The position numbers and the translations under genes are program-made. 64,000 nucleotides of DNA. Source: Candidatus Gastranaerophilales bacterium. Lineage in GTDB: Bacteria > Cyanobacteriota > Vampirovibrionia > Gastranaerophilales > Gastranaerophilaceae. Location: contig CALUVI010000004.1 in assembly GCA_944324185.1 (NCBI GenBank), positions 190 to 64,189 on the forward strand, in the 5' to 3' direction. The notes under the pieces were generated by a model that saw nothing but the letters and a program-made list of their open reading frames with translations, did not search any database and was not told where the DNA came from. Below, piece after piece: positions 36,793 through 52,322 of this stretch; position 1 is the first letter of the stretch; every line of letters begins with the position of its first letter.

Positions 36793-37986
36793 GTGCAAGT
36801 TCTCTGGAAAAAAGAAATAGAAGAAATTAAAGACAGCGGATATTTGAATAACGATATCTCAATTACTGACGCTTTGATTGAGAATTTCTTTAATGAAATT
36901 TTGTATCCTACAGACAAAGGTCTGCTTCAGCTTGCATTCAGCAAAAATCCTACCCAGCAGGATTTAGACAACCTTTTGAAAGATTTTGATATAGAAGTCA
37001 AAGGCGGAAATAAATCCCTGATGCTTTCTTATTTTATGAAACGCCATCCGGAATTAAATTTCACTGCCTATGAAGGTCCGCGCCTGAAAGGTTTGTTAAA
37101 ATTTTTCAGATTTAAAAACCTTAGCACTATCTCTCATTTTACAAAAATCGGAAGAGAATTGAATAAAGCCGGCATTATTCCGATGCTTTTAAAAGGCGGA
37201 GCAATGAAGTTTTTAAGGCAGGATTTACCGAGAGTAATGAGCGATATTGATATCCTTGTTCCTGAAAAAGACTTGATGAAATGCGCAAAATTAGCAGAAC
37301 CTCTCGGTTACTGGTGGGAAAAAGTTGATATTCATGCAATTGACCTTCATCCGGAAGGAAGCGAAGAAGGTGCTTTAGATGTCCACAAATTCATTTATAT
37401 GGAAACCGGACACGAAAAATCTTTACTCAAAGGACTTTATAAAAGAGCAAGAAAAATTGTTGCATTCGGTGTAAATGCACTTATCCCTTCAAATGAAGAT
37501 TTATTATTTATATCTCTTGTTAACCTTGCAAGAAACCTCAGAAACAAAACCAGTCAGGCAGGACTTTTGTATACTTTGTTTGACTGCAAATATCTGATGG
37601 AGAGCAAGCCGGATTTTGACTGGGATATTGTAAGAGAAAATGCAAGAAAAACACATACGGAAATTCAGATGAATTTTGCAATGAAATTCATTGAAAAAAT
37701 TTCTCCGGATGTTTTGCCGGAGGAAATTAAGCATGACAAGCTTTTTGAAAAAGAAACAAATGAATATTCAAATATGGTAATGTACAACAGATTCTATCTT
37801 GAGGATTTGAGGACAAAATGCAGAGCAATGAAAGTCGGGAATTTATTAAAAAATCCGGAACAAATTCCTGAATACCTTGCACTTAAACCAAAATACTTCT
37901 TATTGAAAAGAATCCGGAAACATCCAAAATTGATTGAATTATTCATCAAAGATTTAAAAACCAGACAGTACGAGTTTACAAAATAA
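36793..37986 (+). CDS. Nucleotidyltransferase family protein (NTP_transf_5-like)
   Basis: PMLLKGGAM...RVMSDIDILVP, LDVHKF; GTG start adjacent to the GT2 stop. Confidence 0.75.
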   Translation: MQVLWKKEIEEIKDSGYLNNDISITDALIENFFNEILYPTDKGLLQLAFSKNPTQQDLDNLLKDFDIEVKGGNKSLMLSYFMKRHPELNFTAYEGPRLKGLLKFFRFKNLSTISHFTKIGRELNKAGIIPMLLKGGAMKFLRQDLPRVMSDIDILVPEKDLMKCAKLAEPLGYWWEKVDIHAIDLHPEGSEEGALDVHKFIYMETGHEKSLLKGLYKRARKIVAFGVNALIPSNEDLLFISLVNLARNLRNKTSQAGLLYTLFDCKYLMESKPDFDWDIVRENARKTHTEIQMNFAMKFIEKISPDVLPEEIKHDKLFEKETNEYSNMVMYNRFYLEDLRTKCRAMKVGNLLKNPEQIPEYLALKPKYFLLKRIRKHPKLIELFIKDLKTRQYEFTK

Positions 37987-37996
37987 GGAAGAATTA

Positions 37997-39523
37997 ATGC
38001 AGTTTAGAGATTTTACAAAAGAAGAAATCAGAAATTGTTTTTCAAATATTGATAAGTATTTGAAAAACAAAGAGAAAAAGTTTATAAAATATGTTGATCT
38101 TGGCTGTACTGTTGTAAGATTAATCGGTTACAGCGAAGAGTTTTTGCCGCATATTGAAAAGCAGTTGACTTTTGTTTTGCGTGACAATGCGCCAAAGTAT
38201 GACGCAACACTTATTTTGTGGAAAGGAACTGATTTTAATACTCTAATTCCGCAGCTTTCGCCCAAATTCAATCCTAAAACCAATCTAAAACTTAGAATTG
38301 ACTGGATTTATGCTAAAAGAAAATCTTTTGACTGGCTTCATGTAATTGATAAAGATTTTTCTAAGACGAAACCTGCAATTGATATTCAGGCGGAAAGAGG
38401 CTTCTTTATCGGAAACGATTTTGAAAAGAATACTTACTATTATGGCGTAAGAAATCTGGAGCCGGAAGAATTTATTAAAGAAGGGCATTTGTTTGTTCAG
38501 TTCTTCAATAATATTTTAAAAACTCCGACCTCGAATCTTGCCCACGGAGCGGTTATCGGACTTAACGGAAACGGAATTTTGATGTGCGCAAGAGGTCAGA
38601 GGGGCAAATCTACTTTGTCTGTACTTTCTATGATTAAAGGTTTTGAATACGTCTCTGATGATTATTTGATTCTGCATAAGAAAGGCAACGAGCTTTTATC
38701 AAGCCCTATCTATTCTATAATCACACTTTCACCTAAGATGTATAACGAATTGTATGATTATCTGGGCGGTTCAAGATTCGTTTCAAATAACGCAAGAAAA
38801 GACAAATACGTGTTTAATATTGCAAATTTCCACGACAGATTCAGAATGAATTACCCGATTAAAATTTGTCTTTTCCCTGAAATTGTATCGGACAAAGAGC
38901 CTTCAATCCATCCGTGCGAAAAAGGAAGGGCAATTTGCCAGTTGATTCACTCAACATTGATGCAGACTCAAGACTTAAACGACAATAAAACCGTCAAAAA
39001 GATGATGGATATGGTTAAAGACTTTGAGTTCTATAAATTCAATCTCTGCTCTGATATTGAAAAGAATACAGAATTCCTGCGTGATTTTATGAATAATCTT
39101 GAAAAACGTGAAAGAAAAACTATCACGGAGGACAAAATTTATCTGGATATAACGTTTGATTTTGCAAATATTCTGAACAGTGAAACCGGAATAATTTATT
39201 CGATGAACAAATTTGCGACAAATGTGTTTGAGAATTTGAAACGCGGCGTTTCGTATGAAGCAGTTAAGGAAGCTTTAAAACAATTTGAAAGCGAAAACGA
39301 AAATATAATAAGAGATTTTGATTTATTTACAGAAGCTCTTGAGGCTAAAGGAATTACGCTTCCGGCTCCTGTTAACGGAGTACAGGCGGAAATTAATGCA
39401 GAATTTGCAAAAGAAGATAATTACCGGCTGTCTTTTGTGGAACATGCAGAAGAAGAATACAGAGAATTAGTGAAAGTAAAAGAAATAAATAAGGAGAATA
39501 AAAATGAATTATGTGTTAAATGA
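37997..39523 (+). CDS. HPr kinase-like P-loop kinase fused to a C-terminal PqqD/RRE-like domain
   Basis: AHGAVIG, ARGQRGKST, YVSDDY; C-terminus aligns with the downstream PqqD-like protein (NSETGI.Y.(M/L)N...T.V(F/Y)ENL..G.S). Confidence 0.75.
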   Translation: MQFRDFTKEEIRNCFSNIDKYLKNKEKKFIKYVDLGCTVVRLIGYSEEFLPHIEKQLTFVLRDNAPKYDATLILWKGTDFNTLIPQLSPKFNPKTNLKLRIDWIYAKRKSFDWLHVIDKDFSKTKPAIDIQAERGFFIGNDFEKNTYYYGVRNLEPEEFIKEGHLFVQFFNNILKTPTSNLAHGAVIGLNGNGILMCARGQRGKSTLSVLSMIKGFEYVSDDYLILHKKGNELLSSPIYSIITLSPKMYNELYDYLGGSRFVSNNARKDKYVFNIANFHDRFRMNYPIKICLFPEIVSDKEPSIHPCEKGRAICQLIHSTLMQTQDLNDNKTVKKMMDMVKDFEFYKFNLCSDIEKNTEFLRDFMNNLEKRERKTITEDKIYLDITFDFANILNSETGIIYSMNKFATNVFENLKRGVSYEAVKEALKQFESENENIIRDFDLFTEALEAKGITLPAPVNGVQAEINAEFAKEDNYRLSFVEHAEEEYRELVKVKEINKENKNELCVK

Positions 39524-39974
39524 AGAAAAAATGTTTGCTGATGTAACAGACGGCATTGCAATTATTATTAACTCTGAAACAGGGATATACTACGGCTTAA
39601 ACGGTCTTGGGACAGCGGTTTACGAAAATCTTATGAACGGCGCAAGCGTTGAGAGCATTCTTTCTGCACTCAAAGGCTTATCAGGCGCTCCTGCTGACAT
39701 TGAGGCAAGATTAAACAAATTCATTAAAGATATGGTTGATGCGGAATTGATTATCGAAGGTTCTGCTTCTGATTCAGCGGCAAGCATTGATTCTTCTATT
39801 GCTTCAGAAGATAACTTTGAAATGGAATCTAAAGCTTATGATGACGCTCAGGAACTGTTGTTAGCCGATCCTATCCACGAAGTTAAAGAAGAAACCGGCT
39901 GGACTCCTGAAAAGGATTCAATCGGCTACACAAAAGAAGAAACCCGTGAAAGAGAACAAAAAGTCGAAGCCTAG
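39504..39974 (+). CDS. PqqD/RRE-family protein with acidic C-terminal extension (LLLADPIHEV..ETGW)
   Basis: Three strands + three helices pattern: AIIINSETGIYYGLNGLGTAVYENL...FIKDMVDAELI. Confidence 0.75.
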   Translation: MNYVLNEEKMFADVTDGIAIIINSETGIYYGLNGLGTAVYENLMNGASVESILSALKGLSGAPADIEARLNKFIKDMVDAELIIEGSASDSAASIDSSIASEDNFEMESKAYDDAQELLLADPIHEVKEETGWTPEKDSIGYTKEETREREQKVEA

Positions 39975-40445
39975 GGGGTAAATGTATCGGGGTTGATAGT
40001 AATACTACAAGCTTGATATCATTACAAAGAATAATTCCCTAAACCAAGTCAGCCTTTGCCCCCCTTGCGGAGCACCAAAGGGGGGTAAATGTATTAGGCT
40101 GGTAAGTCTCTCTACCAGTTTGGCGTAAATGCATTTAGCGAGGAAGAAATCCTGCCGGCTTAATATTAATACCTTAGAAAGCAGACTTCCGGCTTGGCGC
40201 AACCCTCCCTGATGAGGGAGGGCAGGGTGGGTGCCAGCAAGAGTAATGACAATTGAATAAAACTCACGCACAAAAACAGTAGTAATACGTCATTGCGAGG
40301 GAATAACCAATACAGCCCGAAGCAATCAAAAATGAATAATAAACTTTTCCCCCGCCCCTTGTGGGAGGGGGCAGGGGGAGGGGTAAAACAATCACCCATC
40401 CTAACCTTCCCTCAAAAGGGAAGGAAGGCGCAAAACCAGACACAG
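39975..40445. repeat. Second mosaic of REP-like palindromes
   Basis: GGGGTAAATGTAT units, CCCTCCCT-GATG-AGGGAGGG, family B copy, CCATCCTAACCTTCCC (also at 27839). Confidence 0.75.
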
Positions 40446-40478
40446 GCAAGCGTAAGAAAACAATAACAGGAGAACAAA

Positions 40479-42944
40479 GTGCCAAAAGTATCAGTAATCA
40501 TACCGGTTTATAACACAGAGAATTATCTCAGAAAATGCCTTGATAGCGTTTGTAACCAAACATTGAAGGACATTGAGATAATCTGTATTAATGATTGTTC
40601 TCCGGACGGCTGCCTTGAAATCTTGAAAGAGTACGCATCAAAGGATGAAAGAATTAAAATAATCGACTTCAAAGAAAACAAAGGCGCCGCCTGCGCCCGC
40701 AACGCCGGCATCGATACTGCCCAAGGCGAATACATTGCTTTTTTAGACAGCGACGATTATCCAGAAGAAAACAATTTTTATGAGACGCTTTACATAAAAG
40801 CTAAAGAAACTGGTGCAGATATCGTAAAGGGAGCTTATAAAGATTCTGAAACCGGATATATTGATGAAACAATAAATAATAAAATAAAAGAAGATAAAAA
40901 CAATTTTTGTTCAACATATTGTAGTGCAATTTTTGACTCAAAATTAATTAAAATTAATAATATCAAATTCCCTTTGTTACGAGATATGGAAGACCCTGTA
41001 TTTGCGTTTAAAACCGCATTAAAAGCAAATACAGTAGAAATTATAGACAATTGCTATGTTATTATAGTAAAAAGGTCCGATTCAATTACCTCAAAAACAC
41101 CATCACTCGATGTCCTCAATGATAAAATTTACGGACTAAAAGAGATATGCAATATGGCTACAAGTATTAATAATGGTTTTGTAATCGCAAATTGGTTTTC
41201 TACAACTATACAAGATATGCAAAAAAATAATTGTCAAAAGATTGTTACTCCTATTTTACAAGAATTAGTACACCTTTTTCATAAAATCAAAGATATTCAA
41301 AATTTCAAAACTCGCCTTGAAGAAATATACCCGCATTTATATGATCATTTTTCTCAAATTTATATAAATGAATTCTTTAATATAAAGTCATTAATAGAAA
41401 AAATTGATAACGCTGAGATAATTTCTTTTGACATATTTGATACATTATTGTTAAGACCTTTCATAAAACCTACAGATTTATTTAATTATATAGAGAAATA
41501 TTATAATGCTACAGGGTATTGCTATGAGAGAATTATGGCAGAAAAAAAAGTTCGTCTCGTTAAGTCTTTGAAAAAAAATAATGACGAAGTTTCTCTTGAT
41601 GAAATCTACTCTAAAATGCCCCAAGAATATCATAATTATAAAAAAATAGAAATTGAAATAGAAACTAAGCTATTACAACCTAATAATGAAATGTTAGAAA
41701 TATTTAATTATGCTAGAAAACATAATAAAACAGTAATTATTACATCTGATATGTACCTACCAACCTCAATACTTATAGAAATTTTACACCAGAAAGGATT
41801 TAAGTATTTTGACAGTATATATGTTTCTTCTGAAATAAGAAAAACGAAAGCCTCAGGTGAAATCTTTCAACATATTATTAAAGACTTTGATATTGCGCCA
41901 AATAAAATTTTACATATTGGTGATAATTATAATTCTGATGTAATCATGCCTAAAGCATTTGGAATAGAATCTTTTTATTACCCAAAAGTAATAAAAAGAT
42001 TTATGCAAGTACCAGCAAATACGCGCTTATTAAAATTTTATAATTTAACTAACAAATCTCTCACTGCAAGTATCATTTTAGGGTTGAGAATTCTTAATTG
42101 GCAAAATAATGAATTTAAAAATTATTGGGAATCCATTGGATATAATTTGGGTGGAATCTTATGTACAGAATTTGTTAAATCTTCTATTGAAATCGCAAAA
42201 AATCAAAACATTACAGACTTACTATTCATTGCTAGAGATGGTTTTGTATTAAATAAAATATATAATTATTTTGCAACAAATAATATACAAAACCATTACG
42301 TTTATGCTTCTCGAAAGTTAAGAAGCTTATGCTTGGAAGAATCCGAAAATTATAACACTCGTAGCGACTTTGAATACAAAAAATACATCAATCATTTACA
42401 AGTTGATGATAAAATTATAGGTATTGTCGATTCTTGTGCAATTGTTTCGTTTTCTGCTCAAACATTATTAAGCAAATATTTAAATCGTAACAATTTATAT
42501 GGCATATATTTAGTGTCTGGTATAAATTATAAATATAAATATTTTAATTTGACTAATACTCCTATAGAAGTTCATCTAAAAACTCTTAATTGGGACTTGA
42601 TAGAATTGTTATTAACAAGTCCAGAAAATCCTATTATAGATATTTTAAATTGTAACCCTGTTTATTCAAAAGAAAATATAAATGAAAATAAACGTCATGA
42701 ATTCTTTGAAGACATTTTTAATGGAGAACTCGCATTTGTAAAAGATTTTTGTAAAATTTTTGGCAAAAATAGCCCTTGCTTGTCTATTCAAGAAATATTT
42801 ACATATTTGTCTAATTTTTGGCAAAACATAGATAATACTGACAAATGCTATTTATATCAAGTTCCGCACGCACAAGACATTAAACAAGAAAAGTATAAAC
42901 CATTGCTTACTCAAACAAGATTAAAGGAAAAACTAAATGCATAA
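40479..42944 (+). CDS. GT2 glycosyltransferase fused to a HAD-superfamily hydrolase
   Basis: N-terminal KVSVIIPVYN/FLDSDD; HAD motifs ISFDIFDTLL, ITSDMY, HIGDNYNSDV. Confidence 0.85.
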   Translation: MPKVSVIIPVYNTENYLRKCLDSVCNQTLKDIEIICINDCSPDGCLEILKEYASKDERIKIIDFKENKGAACARNAGIDTAQGEYIAFLDSDDYPEENNFYETLYIKAKETGADIVKGAYKDSETGYIDETINNKIKEDKNNFCSTYCSAIFDSKLIKINNIKFPLLRDMEDPVFAFKTALKANTVEIIDNCYVIIVKRSDSITSKTPSLDVLNDKIYGLKEICNMATSINNGFVIANWFSTTIQDMQKNNCQKIVTPILQELVHLFHKIKDIQNFKTRLEEIYPHLYDHFSQIYINEFFNIKSLIEKIDNAEIISFDIFDTLLLRPFIKPTDLFNYIEKYYNATGYCYERIMAEKKVRLVKSLKKNNDEVSLDEIYSKMPQEYHNYKKIEIEIETKLLQPNNEMLEIFNYARKHNKTVIITSDMYLPTSILIEILHQKGFKYFDSIYVSSEIRKTKASGEIFQHIIKDFDIAPNKILHIGDNYNSDVIMPKAFGIESFYYPKVIKRFMQVPANTRLLKFYNLTNKSLTASIILGLRILNWQNNEFKNYWESIGYNLGGILCTEFVKSSIEIAKNQNITDLLFIARDGFVLNKIYNYFATNNIQNHYVYASRKLRSLCLEESENYNTRSDFEYKKYINHLQVDDKIIGIVDSCAIVSFSAQTLLSKYLNRNNLYGIYLVSGINYKYKYFNLTNTPIEVHLKTLNWDLIELLLTSPENPIIDILNCNPVYSKENINENKRHEFFEDIFNGELAFVKDFCKIFGKNSPCLSIQEIFTYLSNFWQNIDNTDKCYLYQVPHAQDIKQEKYKPLLTQTRLKEKLNA

Positions 42945-43947
42945 AAAAGTTTCTATAATCATTCCAATATATAATGTTGAACAATATTTAGAAAAATGTT
43001 TAAATAGTGTAATTCATCAAACTTACAAAAATTTAGAAATAATTTGTGTTAATGATTGTTCTCCTGATAATTCTCAAAAAATAATAGAAAGATATAAAAA
43101 GCTTGATAGTAGAATAATCATCTGCAATAGAACTAATAACGGTGGTTTGTCAACAGCAAGAAATACAGGACTTAAAATTGCGACAGGAGAGTTTATATAT
43201 TTTCTTGATTCTGATGACTGGATTGATTTAGATTACATTGAGAAAATGTTACATGCTGCAATAGAAAGTCAAGCAGAAGTAGTATTAAATACAAATATAC
43301 AAGTCCATAATAAAAATTTACCACCTGAACAACATTTCCCTGACAGAACATACAACAACATTACTCATAAATTTATTGATGCAAAACCTGCAATATTAAA
43401 TATTATTTGGAATACTTGGGCTCACTTATGGAAAAAAACTTTTTTAGATAGAATAAATGCTCATTTCCCTGATGGATATATAATTGAGGATCAATATTTT
43501 CAAGCAATAACATATGCTTACCTAGATAAAATATACGTTATAAGAGATAGCACCTATCATTATTTAATAAGAAAAACTAGTATTACTGGCACCCTAAAAA
43601 CAGATTCATTTTCTGCAAATTTAAATATATTGAATAAAATCTATGATTTCTATATAAAAAATAATTTATTCGACAAAATAGATGTCAGGATGATAACTGA
43701 ATGGATATTACCTCAATATGATGAAAATAGAGCGTATCAAATAAAAAAAGTGCGGCTATATTTTCTTAAAATTGCGCCAATGGTAAACAGGACACGCAAC
43801 ATGTATAACAAATTTGAGTTAAAATTATTTGATGATATTGTAAATAATAATCCTTGCGCATTAACACTTAACTACTTTAATTTGTACGTTATTGACAAAT
43901 TAAGAGAAAAAATGAAGCAAAATAAAGGAGTTGCTATACATGGCTAA
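42937..43947 (+). CDS. Glycosyltransferase family 2
   Basis: KVSIIIPIYN, VNDCSPD, STARNTG, FLDSDDW, IEDQYF. Confidence 0.92.
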   Translation: MHKKVSIIIPIYNVEQYLEKCLNSVIHQTYKNLEIICVNDCSPDNSQKIIERYKKLDSRIIICNRTNNGGLSTARNTGLKIATGEFIYFLDSDDWIDLDYIEKMLHAAIESQAEVVLNTNIQVHNKNLPPEQHFPDRTYNNITHKFIDAKPAILNIIWNTWAHLWKKTFLDRINAHFPDGYIIEDQYFQAITYAYLDKIYVIRDSTYHYLIRKTSITGTLKTDSFSANLNILNKIYDFYIKNNLFDKIDVRMITEWILPQYDENRAYQIKKVRLYFLKIAPMVNRTRNMYNKFELKLFDDIVNNNPCALTLNYFNLYVIDKLREKMKQNKGVAIHG

Positions 43948-44824
43948 TATACCCATTTTCTTATCATCAGATAACAACTATGCGCCATTTGTCGCAACAA
44001 CAATTGCAAGTATTTGCGACAATACGGAATCTTTTTGCAGATTTTATATTCTTGATAGCGGCATCAGTATAGAAAATCAGCGCAAAATTATAAGTCTTAA
44101 TGAAACATTTAATAATTTTTCTATAGAGTTCATTAAATTTGATATATATTCTTATTTAAGTGATTTTGAGTATATAAATCAAGCTTCACACGTTTCAATT
44201 TCTACTTATAACAGATTTTTTATAAGCAATCTAAAACCTAAATTTGAAAATGTTCTTTATTTGGACGTAGATTTAATTGCAACAGGTGACATACAAGAAC
44301 TTTTCAGTCAGCACATAGAAAAAACTGTTGGCTGGGTAACTGATGAGAGCAGCAATGATATAATAGAAAATTTCAAAAAAGATTTCGGACTTAATTTCTA
44401 TTTTAATGCCGGTGTAATGTTAATTAATCTAAAAAAATGGCAAGAAAATAATTATACTTCTAAAGCTTTACAATTTGAAAAATTAAACCGAAGTAAAATT
44501 AATTTTGCGGATCAGGACATTTTGAATGTTATTCTAAAAGAGGACTCTGTAAAACTTAATAGTAAATTTAATGTGCAAATATCTGGAAATGGAATTATAA
44601 GACATTTTGTTAATGTATATAAACCCTGGAAAGTTAATTATTTTAAAATAGGAAATCAAATAAAACCGCTTGCAGACTTTGATACATTTTGGAAATATGC
44701 CCAAATGACACCTTTTTATGAAGAATTAAAAGAAAATTATGAAAAAAGCATAAACAGTAGCGTTTTAAATAAAAGAATGAGCATTTTTGTCAATAAAATG
44801 AAAGGCAAGGAATTAATATTATGA
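43940..44824 (+). CDS. Glycosyltransferase family 8
   Basis: IPIFLSSDNNYAP, TYNRFFI, LYLDVDL, YFNAGVMLINL, DQDILN, HF...KPW. Confidence 0.9.
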   Translation: MANIPIFLSSDNNYAPFVATTIASICDNTESFCRFYILDSGISIENQRKIISLNETFNNFSIEFIKFDIYSYLSDFEYINQASHVSISTYNRFFISNLKPKFENVLYLDVDLIATGDIQELFSQHIEKTVGWVTDESSNDIIENFKKDFGLNFYFNAGVMLINLKKWQENNYTSKALQFEKLNRSKINFADQDILNVILKEDSVKLNSKFNVQISGNGIIRHFVNVYKPWKVNYFKIGNQIKPLADFDTFWKYAQMTPFYEELKENYEKSINSSVLNKRMSIFVNKMKGKELIL

Positions 44825-45795
44825 GAAAAAAATATTTAAAAATGATCTTTAATACAGAGGTTAAACTATCTAAAAAAAAATACTGGTACGAAAATTTAGG
44901 ATTTAACTTCTTTTACTATTATCTCAAAATTAGAAGTTTCTTTTCAAAAAAAGATTCCATTATTCACTTCGTATATGAAACAAATACTCAATGTACATTA
45001 CGTTGCAAAGAATGTCATTCGTATATGCCTTATTTTACTAAAGAAGCACATTATATGACTAATTTTGAAACATTCAAGGCGGAAATAGATAAATTATTAA
45101 AAAGTGTTGATTTAATTGTTAGTTTTAGGCTTCAAGGCGGAGAAACACTATTAGTAAAAGATTTAGCCAAAATGGTCGAATATGTTTGTAGCAAAAAACA
45201 GATTCTACATATACAGATAATTTCAAATGGTACAATTATACCATCAGAAGAATTAATCAAAGCTATGCAAAACCCTAAAGTCTTACTCAGTCTTTCTGAT
45301 TATAGTATAAATAAAAAACTTACAAGCAGACTGAAATATGATGAAATATTACAAATTTGCAAAGACAATAATATTGATGCAAAACACTGGCTTACCAAAG
45401 CCGGTGATAGCTGGGTTAACAGAAATTATATTAGTAATGAAAATCTAAAAGACAGAGAGCTTGCTATTAAAAACTTGGCAGCATGCCATTGTTTTGGCTA
45501 TCCCAAATGCTTGATTTTATTCAAAGGAAAACTTTATATTTGTGCTCCGGCTGTATATTTTGCATCAACAAATCCTGATTTTTATATTCCGGAAGGAGAT
45601 GTCATCGATGTAATGAATACTCCACAAAAACTTCTAACCAAGTGGGTTAAGGAATTTAATCAAAAAAAATATTTTGACTTATGCAGCCGCTGCAATGCCG
45701 CAGAAAATGTAAATGTAAGAACCCAACCCGGCGTGCAGTTGGAAGAGACTCAAACCCTTGTCGCCGTAGAGAGTAATCCTGCTAAAAGCATATAG
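44821..45795 (+). CDS. Radical SAM protein with Cys-containing C-terminal region
   Basis: CTLRCKEC (CxxxCxxC), QGGETLL, ISNGT, later C-H-C..C..C and CSRC. Confidence 0.85.
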   Translation: MRKKYLKMIFNTEVKLSKKKYWYENLGFNFFYYYLKIRSFFSKKDSIIHFVYETNTQCTLRCKECHSYMPYFTKEAHYMTNFETFKAEIDKLLKSVDLIVSFRLQGGETLLVKDLAKMVEYVCSKKQILHIQIISNGTIIPSEELIKAMQNPKVLLSLSDYSINKKLTSRLKYDEILQICKDNNIDAKHWLTKAGDSWVNRNYISNENLKDRELAIKNLAACHCFGYPKCLILFKGKLYICAPAVYFASTNPDFYIPEGDVIDVMNTPQKLLTKWVKEFNQKKYFDLCSRCNAAENVNVRTQPGVQLEETQTLVAVESNPAKSI

Positions 45796-46551
45796 TTACA
45801 GAAAGGTTGCATAGTCAATGTATAATAATTTAATATCAATAATCATTCCCGTGAGAAATGGAGCTAATTATCTTAAAGAAGCCATTGATGGGATAAAAAA
45901 ACAAAATATGGACGTAGAGATTATCGTAGTGGATGACGGGTCTACTGACAATACCTTTGAGCTTGCGAAAAGTTTGGGCTGCAATGTTATTAGAAATTCT
46001 GAATCCGAAGGACCGGTCAAGGCGAAAAATAAAGCTATCATTGCTTCTAATGGAGACTTTATTATGTTTCACGACCATGATGATGTTATGAATCCGGATT
46101 CACTTAGGATGATGTTTGAAGAATTACAAGCCGATGAGACATTGTCTGCTGTTATGTGCAAGGTTAAAGACTTTGTGTCACCGGAGATTCCGGAAGAAGA
46201 AAAACAAAAAACTGCTGTTAAGCCGGAGCCCTATTACGGTTTATTTACAGGAGCCGTTCTTATGCGACGGGAAATTTTTGACAAAATCGGGCTTTTTGAT
46301 GAATCAGTAACTGCCGGAGAGATTATTGACTGGCAGACAAAAATGGATAAAAACGGGCTAAAAATTAAGAAATTGGATTTAGTTTCAACAAACCGCCGGT
46401 TGCATACAAGCAACTTCGGTAAAACCCAGCAGAAAAAAGAGTTTAAGGATTATGCAAGTTTACTTAGAGCTAAATTAAGGAAGTAAAAAATGAATGATTA
46501 CATGCAAAATAAGACATTTAAAACGGCTCAAACCCTTGTCGCCGTAGAGAG
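45749..46551. repeat. 25-bp perfect direct repeat CTCAAACCCTTGTCGCCGTAGAGAG (45749-45773, 46527-46551) flanking a GT2 gene
   Basis: Exact match read from the sequence. Confidence 0.9.
45818..46486 (+). CDS. Glycosyltransferase family 2 (short GT-A)
   Basis: ISIIIPVRNG, VDDGSTD, FHDHDD, GAVLMRREIFDKIGLFDE. Confidence 0.9.
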   Translation: MYNNLISIIIPVRNGANYLKEAIDGIKKQNMDVEIIVVDDGSTDNTFELAKSLGCNVIRNSESEGPVKAKNKAIIASNGDFIMFHDHDDVMNPDSLRMMFEELQADETLSAVMCKVKDFVSPEIPEEEKQKTAVKPEPYYGLFTGAVLMRREIFDKIGLFDESVTAGEIIDWQTKMDKNGLKIKKLDLVSTNRRLHTSNFGKTQQKKEFKDYASLLRAKLRK

Positions 46552-46601
46552 AGAGTAACCTCCCTAGTTGAATTTGAAATCAGATATAAGGAGGCTGCAT
46601 A

Positions 46602-47552
46602 ATGGCTCCTTTAATATCTGAAACCAAACAAGCAAATTTACAGAGATTTACTAATCTGTTCAGGCTTACATCTTTTTATGAGAATAAAAATAAACTTACA
46701 CAAGAAGAGCATGAAAAAAATCTTAGTAATCTTATTCAAAATTTAAATGATCCACATGATATTGTATTAAAAGTCGAACAAACTTATCTCACCAAAATGG
46801 TACCTATAAAAAATATCTACACTAAAGAAGAACTACAACAACTAGATAAAATTAAAAAATTTGAACAAGAACCTGAAAAAGTTGATAATTACTTTCAGTG
46901 GAAAAATTATAAGTTACCTGTAAATCTTTTTGAGGCTTCTGTATTCTATTATCAACACGGACTTGATACCCTCAAAAATCCTGAAAAAATTAAAGATAAA
47001 GCAATAATAGATGTCGGTTGTCATATTGCAGACAGTGTTCTTATTTTTCGTGATTATTTCAAAAATAATCCGATTTATTCTTTTGAACCCTCTAAATTAA
47101 ATTATGAAACGGCTCTTAAAACACTTGAATTAAATTCTATTTCAGGGGTTAAAATTGAAAATATAGGACTTGGCGATTCTGATAAGGAACTAAAAATCAA
47201 TTCTACAGATAATCTGCTTAAAAGCTGCGAAAATAATATTTCTGAAGAAGGTAATGAGACTATCAAAATTACAACTCTAGACAAGTATGTTGAAGAAAAT
47301 AATATTGATGTCGGGCTTATAAAAGTTGATATTGAAGGGTTTGAACAAAATTTTCTAAAAGGTGCTTATAAAACAATAAAAGAACAAAAACCTATTTTGC
47401 TTATAAGTATCTATCACAATTATAACGATTTCTACAAAATTAAACCAATGATAGAAAATTGGAATTTAGGCTATACTTTCAGCTTGTTTCAAGGAATTCA
47501 AAATAGCGGTAAGATAGAAGTTGAAACATTATTAATATGTGAACAGTCGTAA
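46602..47552 (+). CDS. FkbM-family SAM-dependent methyltransferase
   Basis: IDVGCHIADS, YSFEPS, ITTLDKY, IKVDIEGFE, LISIYH. Confidence 0.9.
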   Translation: MAPLISETKQANLQRFTNLFRLTSFYENKNKLTQEEHEKNLSNLIQNLNDPHDIVLKVEQTYLTKMVPIKNIYTKEELQQLDKIKKFEQEPEKVDNYFQWKNYKLPVNLFEASVFYYQHGLDTLKNPEKIKDKAIIDVGCHIADSVLIFRDYFKNNPIYSFEPSKLNYETALKTLELNSISGVKIENIGLGDSDKELKINSTDNLLKSCENNISEEGNETIKITTLDKYVEENNIDVGLIKVDIEGFEQNFLKGAYKTIKEQKPILLISIYHNYNDFYKIKPMIENWNLGYTFSLFQGIQNSGKIEVETLLICEQS

Positions 47553-47808
47553 ATTATAAAAACTGACGGCTTTGCAGTTAAAACATAATATCACAGCCTG
47601 AACAAATTTATTTGAGATTTCTTTATATCCAAGACTTCTGCAAATTGTACGAATTTGTATAAAGTTATTCATCTAATAGATATTCTTTGTTATTTTAATT
47701 TCACTGCATTATTTTTCCTTTAGAACAATAATGCGGAGATTTCTGCAATTATAATTTGCAAGTTTTTGAGTTAAAATATTTTATATAAACATAAAATGAG
47801 GGTTTAAG

Positions 47809-48882
47809 ATGAATATAGCAGACAAAGCTTCAAATCCACAGGTAAACTCAAACGGGCAGCCCGTTTATGCAATTATTTTACCGCAGATAAAAGAAACCTC
47901 GGGACTTGCCTGGATATACGTTATGATAATAAACAGGCTTGCTAAAGCTCTGGAACAGGGCTATATTCCGATAATAGACTTACAGCACAATAACAATCAA
48001 TATTTTAAAGACGGGAGAAAATTTAAAGATAACACCTGGGAATATTATTTTAAGCAACCATGCGGAATATCATTAAAGGATTTAGATAATATTGGAGACA
48101 ATTCACAGGTTAAAATACTTATTGATGATTCTGATTTCACAAATATACCGGGAAGTGTTATTAAACTGCAAAGAGTGCTTAACAGTGCGTGCATTGAAAA
48201 ATTTCCGTACAAAAAAGAAGCCCTAAAATATATAAAACTCAGTGATGATGCACAGCAGTACATTGACGATAAGATAAACAGACTTATCGGTAATGAATCG
48301 GAAATACTCGGTATACTATGCAGGGGAACTGACTATATCAGAATTAAACCTAAAGAACATTCTATTCCTGCAACACCTGAAATGCTTATCAAAGAAGCAA
48401 AAGAACTTAAAAGCAAATATCATTACAAAAAAATATATGTTGCAACAGAAGATTTAGAAATTTACAACAAGTTTAAGGATGCATTCGGAGAACTGCTTAT
48501 ACCAAACAATCAGTATATGTACGGGAATTATGAACATTCAAACACTACATATTTATCAAGTATAGAAGTAAACAGACCTAACCATAAATACCAACTAGGA
48601 ATGGAATATTTGTGCTCCATGTATATACTTTCAAATTGCAAATACTTTATAAGCAGCAACAGCTGCGCAGGAGTAGATCTGGTATCAAGATTTTCAAACT
48701 TTTTTTCAAATATGGAATACGTTCACATCTGGGAACGAGGTTCTTATGGATATCACAAAGCTGAGTACAAAAATTTTCCAGAAAAATTATTTTCAATCAA
48801 AAATGAATATAATGACAACATCGTAAGAAAAGTTATCACTATTTTAGGTATAAAAATTAAATTTGTTAAAGAAATTAAATAA
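47809..48882 (+). CDS. Putative O-fucosyltransferase-like (GT-B) glycan-modifying enzyme
   Basis: NTWEYYFKQP, LGILCRGTDY, IYVATED, LSNCKYFI. Confidence 0.55.
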   Translation: MNIADKASNPQVNSNGQPVYAIILPQIKETSGLAWIYVMIINRLAKALEQGYIPIIDLQHNNNQYFKDGRKFKDNTWEYYFKQPCGISLKDLDNIGDNSQVKILIDDSDFTNIPGSVIKLQRVLNSACIEKFPYKKEALKYIKLSDDAQQYIDDKINRLIGNESEILGILCRGTDYIRIKPKEHSIPATPEMLIKEAKELKSKYHYKKIYVATEDLEIYNKFKDAFGELLIPNNQYMYGNYEHSNTTYLSSIEVNRPNHKYQLGMEYLCSMYILSNCKYFISSNSCAGVDLVSRFSNFFSNMEYVHIWERGSYGYHKAEYKNFPEKLFSIKNEYNDNIVRKVITILGIKIKFVKEIK

Positions 48883-48890
48883 AAATTTTA

Positions 48891-49712
48891 TTGTATAATA
48901 GTAATGTGTTTATGTTCTTTTCAATAACCGAAGTTTTCAGACTATGGACTTCGCATATAATTTTAAAAATCCCTGGCTTTAGGATTAAAGCTCAGGAAGG
49001 AAGTCTGCTTTATAATCTGCTGTATCCTTACAGGCAGAATTCAAATATCGGAAAGAATAACAGGTTAATTATTATCGACAATGGCCAGGAAAAAACTGCT
49101 AAAATAAATAAAAATTATAAGGGATTTAAAGTTAATTTCTATGGGAATAACAACACTCTAATTATCGATAAGTCACACAAGCTTGTTAAAACCAATTTTA
49201 TATTTGACTGTTCTGATTCTGTTATTAAAATCGGAGCCGGAGTAAACGGTAAATACCGGATTGCTTTATATGGCAAAAACTGTTCTGTCGCAATCGGAGA
49301 AAATACCTTTTCTGCCGACACCTCTATATTTTTAGTTGACAATTCCATTGAAATCGGCAGAGACTGTATGTTCTCAAACAATGTGAGAATTATAACTGAC
49401 GCACACAGCGTACTGGATTGTAACACTAAAAAAGTCCTGAATCTTCCCGCTAAACCTATAAAAATAGGCAATCACGTATGGCTTGGAGAAAGAACGACTT
49501 TAACAAAGAATGCACAAATCCCTGACGATTGCATTGTAGGAATAGCGTCAGTTGTAACAAAAGCTTTCACGGAAGAACATTCCATAATTGCCGGCAGCCC
49601 TGCGAAAGTCGTAAAACGAAATACAAGCTGGGATTGGGCGCATCCTGCAGACTACAAAGAAAAATTTGAAAAGGATAATAATGAAGAGAATCTTCACATT
49701 CTGGGAACCTAA
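48891..49712 (+). CDS. Hexapeptide-repeat O-acyltransferase
   Basis: IGRDCMFS, TDAHS, IKIGNHVWLG, IPDDCIVGIASVV, AGSPAKVVK. Confidence 0.85.
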   Translation: MYNSNVFMFFSITEVFRLWTSHIILKIPGFRIKAQEGSLLYNLLYPYRQNSNIGKNNRLIIIDNGQEKTAKINKNYKGFKVNFYGNNNTLIIDKSHKLVKTNFIFDCSDSVIKIGAGVNGKYRIALYGKNCSVAIGENTFSADTSIFLVDNSIEIGRDCMFSNNVRIITDAHSVLDCNTKKVLNLPAKPIKIGNHVWLGERTTLTKNAQIPDDCIVGIASVVTKAFTEEHSIIAGSPAKVVKRNTSWDWAHPADYKEKFEKDNNEENLHILGT

Positions 49713-50460
49713 AGAAAACATTCCGGGGTATTTGGAATTGTGCCTGGCAAGTTGGAAAAAATATCTTCCGGATTATGAAATTGTAATTCTTGATTATTCT
49801 AACCTCAAAAATTGGCTTGGAGAAAATTACTTTGACCCTAAATTTTATATCAATTTCTCGCTTGCAGTTCAGTCAGATGCCATAAGATGTGCTGTTCTTA
49901 AAAAATACGGCGGAATTTGGATGGATGTTGATACAATTATTACAGGTAAAAAAGCAAGAGAGATTCTTGAAAACAATGCTGAATTTGCACTTATTTACCC
50001 GCATATTTGTTTAATTAAAGCAAAAACTGAATGTAAAATTTTAACTAAATGGGAGAGAAGAATAAAAAAGCGTATTGAATATGTGAATAAAGCTTTTAGA
50101 AATAAACTGTTGCTTAAATACATTTACCCTAAAATGTATAAAAAGATAACAAATTGGAGTTATCTCGGCAACGATATTTTAAATAAAATAATTGATACAG
50201 AAGATAAATGTTTAAAACTCGACAGAGACAAATTACATACTATGCCGGAGTTTGAACACGCAAAGAGTTTTAACAAACCAGTTAAGATATACAAAAGTTT
50301 CTATTTCAAACATGATTATTCAGATTTTGCGCTCGAAAATAATGGCGGAATTATTCTTTTACACAACTCCTGGACACCTGAAAAGTACAAGAAAATGAAC
50401 CGGGAAGAGTTTTTGAAAACAAACAACACGCTTTCTAAAATTTTGCAGAAGATTTTATGA
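49681..50460 (+). CDS. Capsular polysaccharide synthesis protein (GT32-like, DxD)
   Basis: IFTFWEP, CLASWKK, SDAIRCAVLKKYGGIWMDVD. Confidence 0.85.
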   Translation: MKRIFTFWEPKENIPGYLELCLASWKKYLPDYEIVILDYSNLKNWLGENYFDPKFYINFSLAVQSDAIRCAVLKKYGGIWMDVDTIITGKKAREILENNAEFALIYPHICLIKAKTECKILTKWERRIKKRIEYVNKAFRNKLLLKYIYPKMYKKITNWSYLGNDILNKIIDTEDKCLKLDRDKLHTMPEFEHAKSFNKPVKIYKSFYFKHDYSDFALENNGGIILLHNSWTPEKYKKMNREEFLKTNNTLSKILQKIL

Positions 50461-50498
50461 TACAATAAAATTAGTAAAAAGCAAAATGAGGATAGTAA

Positions 50499-52322
50499 AT
50501 GAAATTAAGTAATACAACAGCGCAAAATTCGTTCAAATACGGATGGCTGCTTTCAAGGATTTTTCCATACATAAAACCTTATATGTTCAGAATAATCTGC
50601 GGGTTTATAGTCGCAATACCATTAGGGCTTCTCGACGGCGTTACAGCGTTTGCGCTAAAACCTTATATGGATTATGTTGTAGGAAAGCAGGATTGGGTTT
50701 TTCACCTTCTCGGGCATGAATTTACGCTCTCTTGGCAATTGTTTGCATTTATTATCCCGTTTGGTGTAATTGCATTTGCAGGATTTCAGGGTGTTTTGAG
50801 ATACCTTAATGACTATATTTCAGCATGGACTTCCCAGAGAATTACAAACGACGTAAAAATGGATTTGTTCCATAAATTAATCTATATGGATCCTCAATTC
50901 TTTGACGAAAATACGTCAGGTATTATTATCTCCAGATACATGAGCGATCCGCAGACAGCTTCCGCTGGAATTGTAGACCAGATTAAGACAATTACAACAA
51001 GCGTTTTCGGAGCATTAGGTCTGATAGCTGTTATGCTTTACAGTTCCTGGAAACTCGCTTTAATAGGCGTTATGGTACTCGGAATTGCTTTTATTCCTGT
51101 TGCGTTAATAAGAAAAAGAATTAAAGCCGCTTCAAATAAAAACATGGTAATCGGCGGTAATATTACAACAAATATTAACGAAACCTACAGCGGTAACAAG
51201 GTTATGGCAGCTTACGAGCTGCAGCAGAGACAGGAAAACTATTTCAGAGACCAGATCTGGGAGTCTTTCAGAGTAAATATGTCACTCACCAAGCGTGCAG
51301 CCTGGATGAGCCCTTTGATGTATGTAATAGCATCTTGCGGAATTGCAATCGTTCTGGGTTACGGAACTCACTTAATTACAAGCGGGCAGATGACAGCCGG
51401 AGCGTTTGCATCTTTTGTAACTTCATTACTTCTTTTATATAAACCGGTTAAAACACTCGGAAACACTCTTACAAGTATTCAAAATATTTTCGTTGCAATG
51501 GGCAGGGTGTTTGAATTATTTGACCTTAACCCTGAAATTCAAGACAGAAAAGATGCTATTCAAATGAAAGATTTTAACGACAAAATCGAATTCAAAAATG
51601 TATGTTTTGAATACCTTCCGGATCAGCCGGTACTTAAGAATTTGAATTTATCTGTCCGCAAAAATGAAACGCTTGCTATAGTCGGCAATTCCGGCGGTGG
51701 TAAATCAACATTGGTTAATTTGATTCCGAGATTTTACGATATCAAATCAGGTTCAATAACTTTTGACGGAATTGATATCAGAGATTTTTCAATTAATTCT
51801 CTGAGACACAACATCGCAATGGTATTTCAGGATAATTTCCTGTTTTCAGGTACAATAAGAGAAAATATTATGATGGGAAATCCGGAGGCAACAGAAGCAG
51901 AACTTGAGCAGGCAATTGAATCTGCGCATCTGCAGGAAATGATTGCCGAGCTTCCGGACGGCTTGGAAACACTTTTAGGAGAAAGAGGTTTGACTCTCTC
52001 CGGCGGTCAGAGACAAAGGGTTGCTATTGCAAGAGCTATGATTAAAAACACTCCGATTGTAATCTTAGATGAAGCAACATCGGCTCTTGATAATAAGTCG
52101 GAAGCTATTGTACAAAAAGCTTTAGATAATTTAATACAGAATAAAACCGTATTTGTAATCGCTCACAGGCTTTCTACAATCAAAAATGCCGACAGGATTG
52201 CGGTAATAACAGAAGGAGAGCTTGTAGAACTCGGAAATCATGAAGAGTTAATGTCCATAGAAAACGGGCAGTACAGAGCTTTGTATGAAATGCAATTCAA
52301 AAAGCAGGAAGCTTTAGTATAA
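50499..52322 (+). CDS. MsbA-like ABC transporter (fused TM + ATPase)
   Basis: Six-TM domain, GNSGGGKST, LSGGQRQRVAIARA, ILDEATSALD, IAHRLST. Confidence 0.9.
   Translation: MKLSNTTAQNSFKYGWLLSRIFPYIKPYMFRIICGFIVAIPLGLLDGVTAFALKPYMDYVVGKQDWVFHLLGHEFTLSWQLFAFIIPFGVIAFAGFQGVLRYLNDYISAWTSQRITNDVKMDLFHKLIYMDPQFFDENTSGIIISRYMSDPQTASAGIVDQIKTITTSVFGALGLIAVMLYSSWKLALIGVMVLGIAFIPVALIRKRIKAASNKNMVIGGNITTNINETYSGNKVMAAYELQQRQENYFRDQIWESFRVNMSLTKRAAWMSPLMYVIASCGIAIVLGYGTHLITSGQMTAGAFASFVTSLLLLYKPVKTLGNTLTSIQNIFVAMGRVFELFDLNPEIQDRKDAIQMKDFNDKIEFKNVCFEYLPDQPVLKNLNLSVRKNETLAIVGNSGGGKSTLVNLIPRFYDIKSGSITFDGIDIRDFSINSLRHNIAMVFQDNFLFSGTIRENIMMGNPEATEAELEQAIESAHLQEMIAELPDGLETLLGERGLTLSGGQRQRVAIARAMIKNTPIVILDEATSALDNKSEAIVQKALDNLIQNKTVFVIAHRLSTIKNADRIAVITEGELVELGNHEELMSIENGQYRALYEMQFKKQEALV

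Follow-up and report, generated by a model that had tools for sequence, protein, structure and literature searches.

A near-invariant peptide on a free RRE protein marks a widespread kinase–nucleotidyltransferase–glycosyltransferase cassette

RiPP recognition elements (RREs; RiPP, a peptide made on the ribosome and modified after translation) are known as receptors of separate precursor peptides. Here we describe an RRE that bears a near-invariant peptide of its own and whose associated enzymes are a kinase, a nucleotidyltransferase and glycosyltransferases rather than a cyclase or protease. It is encoded in a 64,000-nucleotide stretch of DNA from Candidatus Gastranaerophilales bacterium, a gut-dwelling cousin of the cyanobacteria (GenBank assembly GCA_944324185.1, contig CALUVI010000004.1, positions 190–64,189), which we refer to as the window. 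The open reading frame (ORF) of this 156-residue free protein (39504–39974) overlaps the stop of a 508-residue kinase ORF (37997–39523) by 20 nucleotides (nt), and both lie on the plus strand in a single, tightly packed operon (35932–52322). The C-terminal peptide, or tail, of the free protein marks a widespread, unstudied cassette that heads sugar-coat gene clusters; in the literature on PF14907 proteins, HprK-like kinases and RREs with HPr kinases, we came across no account of an RRE with such a tail.

The tail is the most conserved segment of the free protein

A first-pass annotation of the window, made from the sequence alone, had drawn attention to the tail and allowed that it might prove not to be conserved. 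Among 16 sequences with 65–95% identity, hardly any position between Y112 and E151 changes, in contrast to the variable second half of the RRE. A motif-blind phmmer search gave 34 cluster representatives (27–66% identity), among which D122, P123 and W133 are the sole invariant residues of the whole protein, with H125 and G132 each conserved in more than 90%. The pattern DPxH..W is present in most full-length-like representatives found by motif-blind phmmer (99 of 115), and mean entropy, calculated for a motif-selected sample, is 0.82 bits in the tail versus 2.09 bits in the RRE.

In the window, the near-invariant peptide spans residues 113–138 (39840–39917): it opens with DDAQE, continues through LLLADPIHEV and KEETGW and closes with TPEKD, and the consensus across relatives is [YF]xDxQ[DE]LLLxDP[IV]H[DE]V..xGW(x)Px(x)K. 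Its invariant residues use every synonymous codon, with A, P and V, for example, each encoded in four ways and L in six, and therefore the constraint acts on the peptide. A nucleotide-level constraint, such as an RNA element or an overlapping signal, is ruled out by this free codon use. The tail is thus the most conserved segment of the free protein and is under protein-level selection. Beyond the consensus, the protein ends in a charged stretch of 6–25 residues that differs by clade and is often free of serine and threonine outside the close clade. Within the close clade this stretch is the invariant extension SIGYTKEETREREQKVEA (residues 139–156 plus stop; 39918–39974), which carries S139, Y142, T143 and T147. 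A conserved ‘leader’ with a variable end behind it is in keeping with RiPP logic.

The free protein is predicted to join a lasso-type RRE to a flexible peptide

Sequence comparison and modelling divide the free protein into four parts: an RRE of the lasso B1 type (residues 1–89; 39504–39770), a linker with a self-packing strand (residues 90–112; 39771–39839), the flexible near-invariant peptide (residues 113–138) and the charged end. In an AlphaFold2 (AF2) model built from a 70-sequence alignment, the predicted local distance difference test score (pLDDT) was at least 91 for residues 1–110, 76 for residues 111–120, 65 for residues 121–130, 57 for residues 131–140 and 64 for residues 141–156. 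The RRE itself (pLDDT 91–98) is modelled as a winged helix with a three-stranded antiparallel sheet and three helices. Foldseek matched residues 1–89 to complexes of TbiB1 with its leader (5v1v and 5v1u; target TM 0.81–0.83) and also to 6jx3, and phmmer recovered TbiB1 at E 3e-4 over residues 12–89. The best NCBIfam relatives of the free protein are lasso PqqD-family chaperones, although every NCBIfam score falls well short of its cut-off (26 versus 70 bits). The strand G27–N33 is conserved among homologues, N33 included.

Beyond the canonical RRE, a helix (residues 97–102) and a strand (residues 109–111) are packed confidently onto the domain in both AF2 models, that of the free protein and that of a homologue described below (pLDDT 92–96). 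The linker is variable over residues 90–102 and is followed by the conserved segment xDxFxLxVxEY (residues 103–112), which is kept in both RRE paralogues of the operon and in which conservation reaches 90% or more at F105, E111 and Y112.

The free protein defines a four-gene cassette

A scan with one genome per species returned at least 599 candidate stretches and at least 548 confirmed relatives. The cassette consists of a PF14907 (NTP_transf_5) nucleotidyltransferase, an HprK-like kinase, the RRE-tail protein and a GT2 glycosyltransferase, and occurs in at least 548 species of over ten phyla, with hosts in the Gastranaerophilales, gut Alphaproteobacteria, Desulfovibrio, Bacteroidales, Elusimicrobia, Verrucomicrobia, Spirochaetia, Deferribacterales, Clostridia and Chlamydiae. 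The locus search used narrower alignments; the broad alignment had no conserved stretch long enough.

The order nucleotidyltransferase, kinase, RRE-tail, GT2 was found in nearly all of 80 fetched loci. In the window, the nucleotidyltransferase, a core cassette member of the PsmN/LppN type, lies at 36793–37986 (+; Pfam E 1.4e-20). Almost every related locus has its counterpart beside the kinase, and distant soil loci contain one too: in a soil and sediment branch with 27–35% identity, the RRE-tail gene is followed by the kinase, two or three GT2 genes and then the nucleotidyltransferase. The partner GT2 of most relatives starts 0–20 nt past the end of the RRE-tail gene, and in most gut-clade loci the GT2 directly downstream is 45–67% identical to the N-terminal domain of the window gene at 40479–42944. 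The set of glycosyltransferases farther downstream differs from locus to locus. The free protein is the universal, defining member of a cassette that heads highly variable glycosyltransferase (sugar-coat) loci.

The core of the cassette in related loci has no room for a precursor-sized ORF, as the kinase abuts or overlaps the RRE-tail gene upstream and the GT2 follows closely downstream. Nor did the 96.5%-complete genome yield a Transglut_core3 match, the mark of a lasso B2 protein. Of 151 genomes sampled from the order, 7 encode the RRE-tail protein, three further species of the genus all lack it, and copies with 65–75% identity occur in metagenome-assembled genomes (MAGs) of gut Alphaproteobacteria, which suggests that the cassette is an accessory module that moves horizontally among gut bacteria.

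A tail-less RRE paralogue is fused to the kinase

The kinase carries a second RRE in its C-terminal part (residues 372–508; 39110–39523, +), identified by both BLASTP and a PqqD match. Residues 375–430 of the kinase and 4–59 of the free protein are 45% identical over 56 amino acids (BLASTP, E 3e-13), which bears out the duplication that the first-pass annotation had read from the sequence; the peptides it quoted are all present where it placed them, and kinase residue 372 begins at base 39110. The Pfam PqqD profile matches the free copy at E 6e-9 and the fused copy at E 8e-5 (hmmscan). A six-frame search of the 96.5%-complete genome scored the fused copy at 27.1 bits, above the cut-off, and found exactly these two PqqD domains. 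A second similar block, AKEDNYRLSF in the kinase and ASEDNFEMES in the free protein, is kept across 119 fused kinases.

The tail had also been described as unique to the free copy, and this holds: the free copy alone bears DAQELLLADPIHEV..GWxPxK, and LLLADPIHEV..GW is absent from the fused copy, where EYRELVKVKEINKENKNELCVK stands in its place. In the fused copy, the strand segment EDNYRLSFVEH is retained and the sequence closes with NELCVK. Across the 119 fused kinases, DPIH..GW has been lost and E-L-[IV]-K retained. Many end in ENELC[VI]K, a conserved C-terminus with a cysteine that lies at 39497–39520 in the window; because it is kept in many fused copies, the tail-less domain has gained a conserved C-terminus of its own rather than simply decayed.

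Maximum-likelihood analysis groups every fused RRE in a single, long-stemmed clade with 100/100 support, whose terminal branches are longer than those of free copies. The clade falls among free RREs of gut bacteria, a placement with weak support (81/89). Among 72 complete kinases, 29 carry an RRE (490–515 amino acids) and 43 do not (331–403 amino acids), and the fused type is restricted to the branch of Gastranaerophilales and gut Alphaproteobacteria. Given the single, fully supported clade on its long stem, the kinase-fused RRE traces back to a single duplication of the free gene within this gut clade, and it evolves faster than the free copy. The duplication amounts to a natural experiment: one operon contains the same domain in a form that has the motif and in a form that lacks it, the latter fused to the kinase.

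Other arrangements of the same parts occur among relatives. A Spirochaetia MAG (L035:424–4829) encodes a nucleotidyltransferase, an RRE-tail protein, an unfused 403-residue kinase, a separate 143-residue RRE with a degenerate tail and a GT2, an order that is possibly an intermediate towards, or a fission product of, the kinase–RRE fusion. Three proteins of about 275 residues (P0144, P0242 and P0225) join an RRE with a degenerate tail to one with a full tail; P0144 and P0242 belong to an environmental branch and are of independent origin. P0249 (541 residues) fuses the nucleotidyltransferase to an RRE with a full tail. These natural fusions (P0249, P0144 and P0242) indicate that the tail-bearing RRE is physically tied to the enzymes and to its tail-less paralogue. 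P0159 (530 residues) is a kinase–RRE fusion with a half-decayed motif, KPMHDI, and in L029 a single TAA separates the kinase–RRE gene from the free gene. No natural fusion of a kinase with an RRE and a full tail was found among 163 loci.

The first-pass annotation had the kinase-fused RRE bind the tail in trans. As a general mechanism this does not hold, because 43 of 72 complete cassettes bear the same tail yet lack a second RRE, and the fused domain is a lineage-specific duplicate. A narrower, clade-specific form, in which the fused RRE captures the DPIHEV tail and presents T134, S139, T143 and T147 to the kinase, is possible as a refinement, and we consider it improbable. In its favour, the clade of the window keeps these four hydroxyl residues, and Y142, without exception, and S139 follows P123 by 16 residues, near the spacing of 15 between P and Ser3 in the LppA consensus (our own count). 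Tail-less second RREs have arisen repeatedly (fused to the kinase, stand-alone in L035 and in tandem in P0144 and P0242), which argues that they have some function. The fused copy also keeps the Asn that corresponds to N33 of the free protein, a residue that contacts the leader backbone in LppB of the linear polyphosphorylated peptide (LPP) system (Popov et al., Nat Commun 2026, PMC13381572). However, tails of the same clade (clade A) also occur with unfused kinases (L022, L026, L042 and L076), the protein of L035, at 59% identity, has no serine or threonine after the tryptophan, and the fused copy keeps the self-packing segment, so its groove may be occupied.

The kinase domain is a distant HprK/PEPCK relative

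Residues 1–370 of the kinase (37997–39106, +) match HprK profiles of Pfam and NCBIfam weakly and over the P-loop region only (Pfam Hpr_kinase_C, E 1e-3, 18.9 bits versus a cut-off of 33.3), and a sequence search of the Protein Data Bank (PDB) gave HprK matches at noise level only (E ~0.3). The domain nonetheless shows the features of the HPr kinase/phosphorylase superfamily: a P-loop of the GxxGxGK[ST] type (G200-x-x-G203-K-S-T) within CARGQRGKST (residues 197–206; 38585–38614), a preceding HG (in H183-G-A), a following D221-D222 (38657–38662) and a fold like that of phosphoenolpyruvate carboxykinase (PEPCK). H183-G, G203-K-S-T206, D221, D222, K270 and S319-T320 are conserved in about 100% of 50 homologues. 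HprK/P belongs to the PEP carboxykinase fold class, and the AF2 model of a kinase homologue with 51% identity (pLDDT above 90) found PEP carboxykinases as its top Foldseek matches (E 1e-10). With its catalytic residues kept and this fold match, and despite the weak profile scores, the domain is a distant member of the HprK/PEPCK P-loop kinases that is catalytically intact. Pfam PF27840 is annotated on some of the kinase homologues.

Possible roles of the tail

We tentatively lean, at somewhat less than even confidence, towards the free protein being a self-contained RRE-plus-leader, with the invariant peptide as a handle and the variable end as the acceptor of a phosphate-linked sugar. Residues 113–138 would serve as the handle for the kinase, the nucleotidyltransferase and the first GT2 of the cassette, and the end after GW..K (here DSIGYTKEET) would be the likely acceptor. 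This follows the logic of LppK/LppN and PsmK/PsmN: LppK polyphosphorylates Ser3 of LppA and accepts serine only (PMC13381572), and in pseudomycoidin PsmK phosphorylates the C-terminal serine, to whose phosphate the nucleotidyltransferase PsmN adds a hexose (PMC8498205). The fused RRE would be an accessory and not a general receptor of the tail; its probable task is to keep the kinase attached to the free protein. If true, this would explain the apparently missing precursor of these loci, and, with the tail as acceptor or handle, the cassette would connect glycan assembly with recognition of the RiPP type in many uncultured bacteria of the gut.

The proposal that the tail is a fused core or leader peptide, bound in trans and modified on nearby serine or threonine, therefore survives in part. 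A fused leader- or core-like peptide is reasonable, because the conserved cassette has no separate precursor gene and the tail is conserved; binding in trans and a family-wide acceptor residue were not supported. T134, S139, T143 and T147 are indeed present and are invariant in the close clade, but they are clade-specific.

Several points weigh against the RRE-plus-leader reading. More than a third of the distinct tails (87 of 252, 35%) have no serine or threonine after the tryptophan, and only 17 of 252 end in serine. In a 157-sequence alignment, no column exceeds 66% serine, and no serine, threonine or tyrosine is conserved family-wide; the kinases of clades free of serine and threonine keep every catalytic residue, and the peptide kinases of the HprK type that have been characterized are specific for serine. 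The tail contains LADP rather than the canonical [Y/W]xxP of RRE-binding motifs, and invariance this strict is more usual in motifs that serve docking or catalysis than in RiPP leaders. Alternatively, the locus could assemble its glycan on a lipid carrier, primed by an enzyme whose gene lies elsewhere.

Structure prediction adds weak negative evidence. To place the tail next to a kinase, we folded the kinase and RRE-tail protein of L053 (Bacteroidales, unfused kinase, about 50% identical) as one chain of 509 residues joined by read-through of the stop; the alignment was a clean block anchored by six other read-through pairs. Kinase and RRE were modelled confidently, and the motif had a pLDDT of 54–56, no higher than in the isolated free protein. 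As the motif stayed at pLDDT 54–65 alone and tethered, neither docking of the tail on the kinase nor docking of the motif on its own RRE is predicted. This result is weak because it comes from a monomer model, uses pLDDT as a proxy and concerns a homologous rather than an identical system.

The main rival to the RRE-plus-leader reading is that the RRE-tail protein is an adaptor only, which we think unlikely, if worth serious attention. Here the protein would never be modified; its RRE fold would be co-opted as a scaffold, the groove filled by its own strand (residues 103–112), and the invariant peptide would be a docking motif that brings together or activates the kinase, nucleotidyltransferase and GT2, whose substrate would be a sugar, a different protein or a lipid-linked glycan. 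That D, P, H, G and W are invariant while no hydroxyl residue is conserved suits such a role, as do the confident self-packing of residues 97–112 in both models and the constancy of the tail while the downstream glycosyltransferase sets change wholly. By contrast, every characterized relative of the enzyme trio acts on an RRE-bound peptide, and AF2 left the motif undocked on the kinase here too. No alternative acceptor is in view either: Pfam and hydropathy scans of the operon (35932–52322) found no lipid-carrier initiating transferase of the WecA/WbaP type, no Wzx flippase or Wzy polymerase and no ligase.

Cofactor precursors are RiPP-type peptides with invariant modified residues, and the PqqD fold is the chaperone of the pyrroloquinoline quinone (PQQ) pathway. 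The invariant peptide might accordingly be processed to a small molecule, as PqqA and MftA are, with modified residues among D122, H125 and W133, whose invariance fits. We regard this as very improbable, since the conserved core has no radical SAM enzyme, oxidase or peptidase and the conserved partners are instead a kinase, a nucleotidyltransferase and glycosyltransferases. The radical SAM gene of the operon (44821–45795) lies outside the core, because L001, L003 and L111 lack it.

The rest of the operon

The operon opens with a GT2 gene (35932–36792, +; Pfam Glycos_transf_2, E 5e-41), of which upstream copies with 57–82% identity (tblastn) occur in close loci only. Between the RRE-tail gene and the next GT2 gene lies a GC-richer, REP-like repeat mosaic of about 500 bp (39975–40478) that contains GGGGTAAATGTAT twice. 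It sits where the GT2 of most relatives begins, at most 20 nt past the RRE-tail stop; the insertion may therefore uncouple translation of the two genes. A hidden precursor ORF in this spacer was ruled out, because the mosaic is absent from relatives.

Downstream of the spacer follow a protein with an N-terminal GT2 domain fused to an HAD-like domain and a C-terminal region (40479–42944, +; Pfam GT2, E 6e-39; HAD, E 2e-13), a GT2, a GT8, the radical SAM protein, another GT2 and an FkbM methyltransferase. Two proteins without a Pfam match, a Caps_synth-type glycosyltransferase and an ABC exporter of the MsbA/PglK type (50499–52322, +; Pfam ABC_membrane and ABC_tran) end the operon. The radical SAM gene stands amid the glycosyltransferases and has its CxxxCxxC motif at residues 58–65. 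An ORF of 273 residues without a Pfam match (48891–49712) has a C-terminal half that, by sequence, resembles a hexapeptide-repeat acyltransferase (GNHVWLGERTTLTKNAQIPDDCIVG). The Pfam scan, which covered all ORFs of at least 120 residues, found no peptidase in the operon, and none was seen in L001, L003 or L111.

In a hydropathy scan, the ABC exporter is the sole predicted membrane protein of the operon and all thirteen enzymes are predicted to be soluble; homologues of the exporter occur in some related loci only. A bolder version of the preferred reading, which we consider quite unlikely, would make the RRE-tail protein a glycan carrier: the kinase, nucleotidyltransferase and GT2 would prime its tail or end, the soluble glycosyltransferases would extend the glycan in the cytoplasm and the MsbA/PglK-like pump would export it. 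With similar reserve, this would represent a peptide-primed route independent of a lipid carrier, found in hundreds of species of over ten phyla and phase-variable here.

Comparison with known systems

One close parallel is LPP, encoded by lppA-K-B-S-D-N clusters of Bacillota that are embedded in capsule loci; its core comprises an RRE (LppB), the HprK-like LppK, the NTP transferase LppN, a SipW-like peptidase and an MsbA-like pump, and its precursors are separate proteins of 35–200 residues with the leader YxxPxVLxHQxIxFET (PMC13381572). A discrete RRE, a kinase like HprK, an NTP transferase and an exporter resembling MsbA are all present in the window operon, the exporter being shared by some relatives only. 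Neither system has a lasso cyclase, and both lie in polysaccharide or glycosyltransferase loci. Unlike LPP, the window system has no separate precursor with that leader and no SipW-like peptidase; its RRE bears its own invariant C-terminal peptide, LADPIHEV..GW, a GT2 is tightly linked, and the family extends over more than ten phyla rather than Bacillota only.

Lasso peptide tailoring of the paeninodin type (PadeK/ThcoK, and PsmK with PsmN; PMC8498205) likewise pairs an HPr-kinase homologue with a nucleotidyltransferase and has a B1-type RRE in the cluster. There the acceptor is a C-terminal serine, whereas the window system has no precursor gene, no Asn-synthetase-like cyclase and no B2 protease. 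Lasso B1 proteins themselves (TbiB1, 5v1v and 5v1u; TfuB1/FusB1, 6jx3) share the winged-helix RRE fold, but they are about 85–90 residues long and bind a separate leader; the protein described here has a 67-residue extension that is partly self-packed, with the invariant peptide at its end. The uncharacterized HPr-rel-A pair (TIGR04352 and TIGR04353) also joins an HprK-related kinase to a PqqD-family protein. The window kinase, however, scores 26.5 bits versus 200, the free protein has no TIGR04353 match, and a single member of the family (1 of 34) matches TIGR04353, weakly.

Our analysis therefore places the window system outside the LPP and lasso clusters, because precursor, peptidase, cyclase and B2 protein are absent and a GT2 and an invariant peptide are added, and it does not fall within HPr-rel-A either, though the system plausibly works in the manner of LPP and lasso tailoring.

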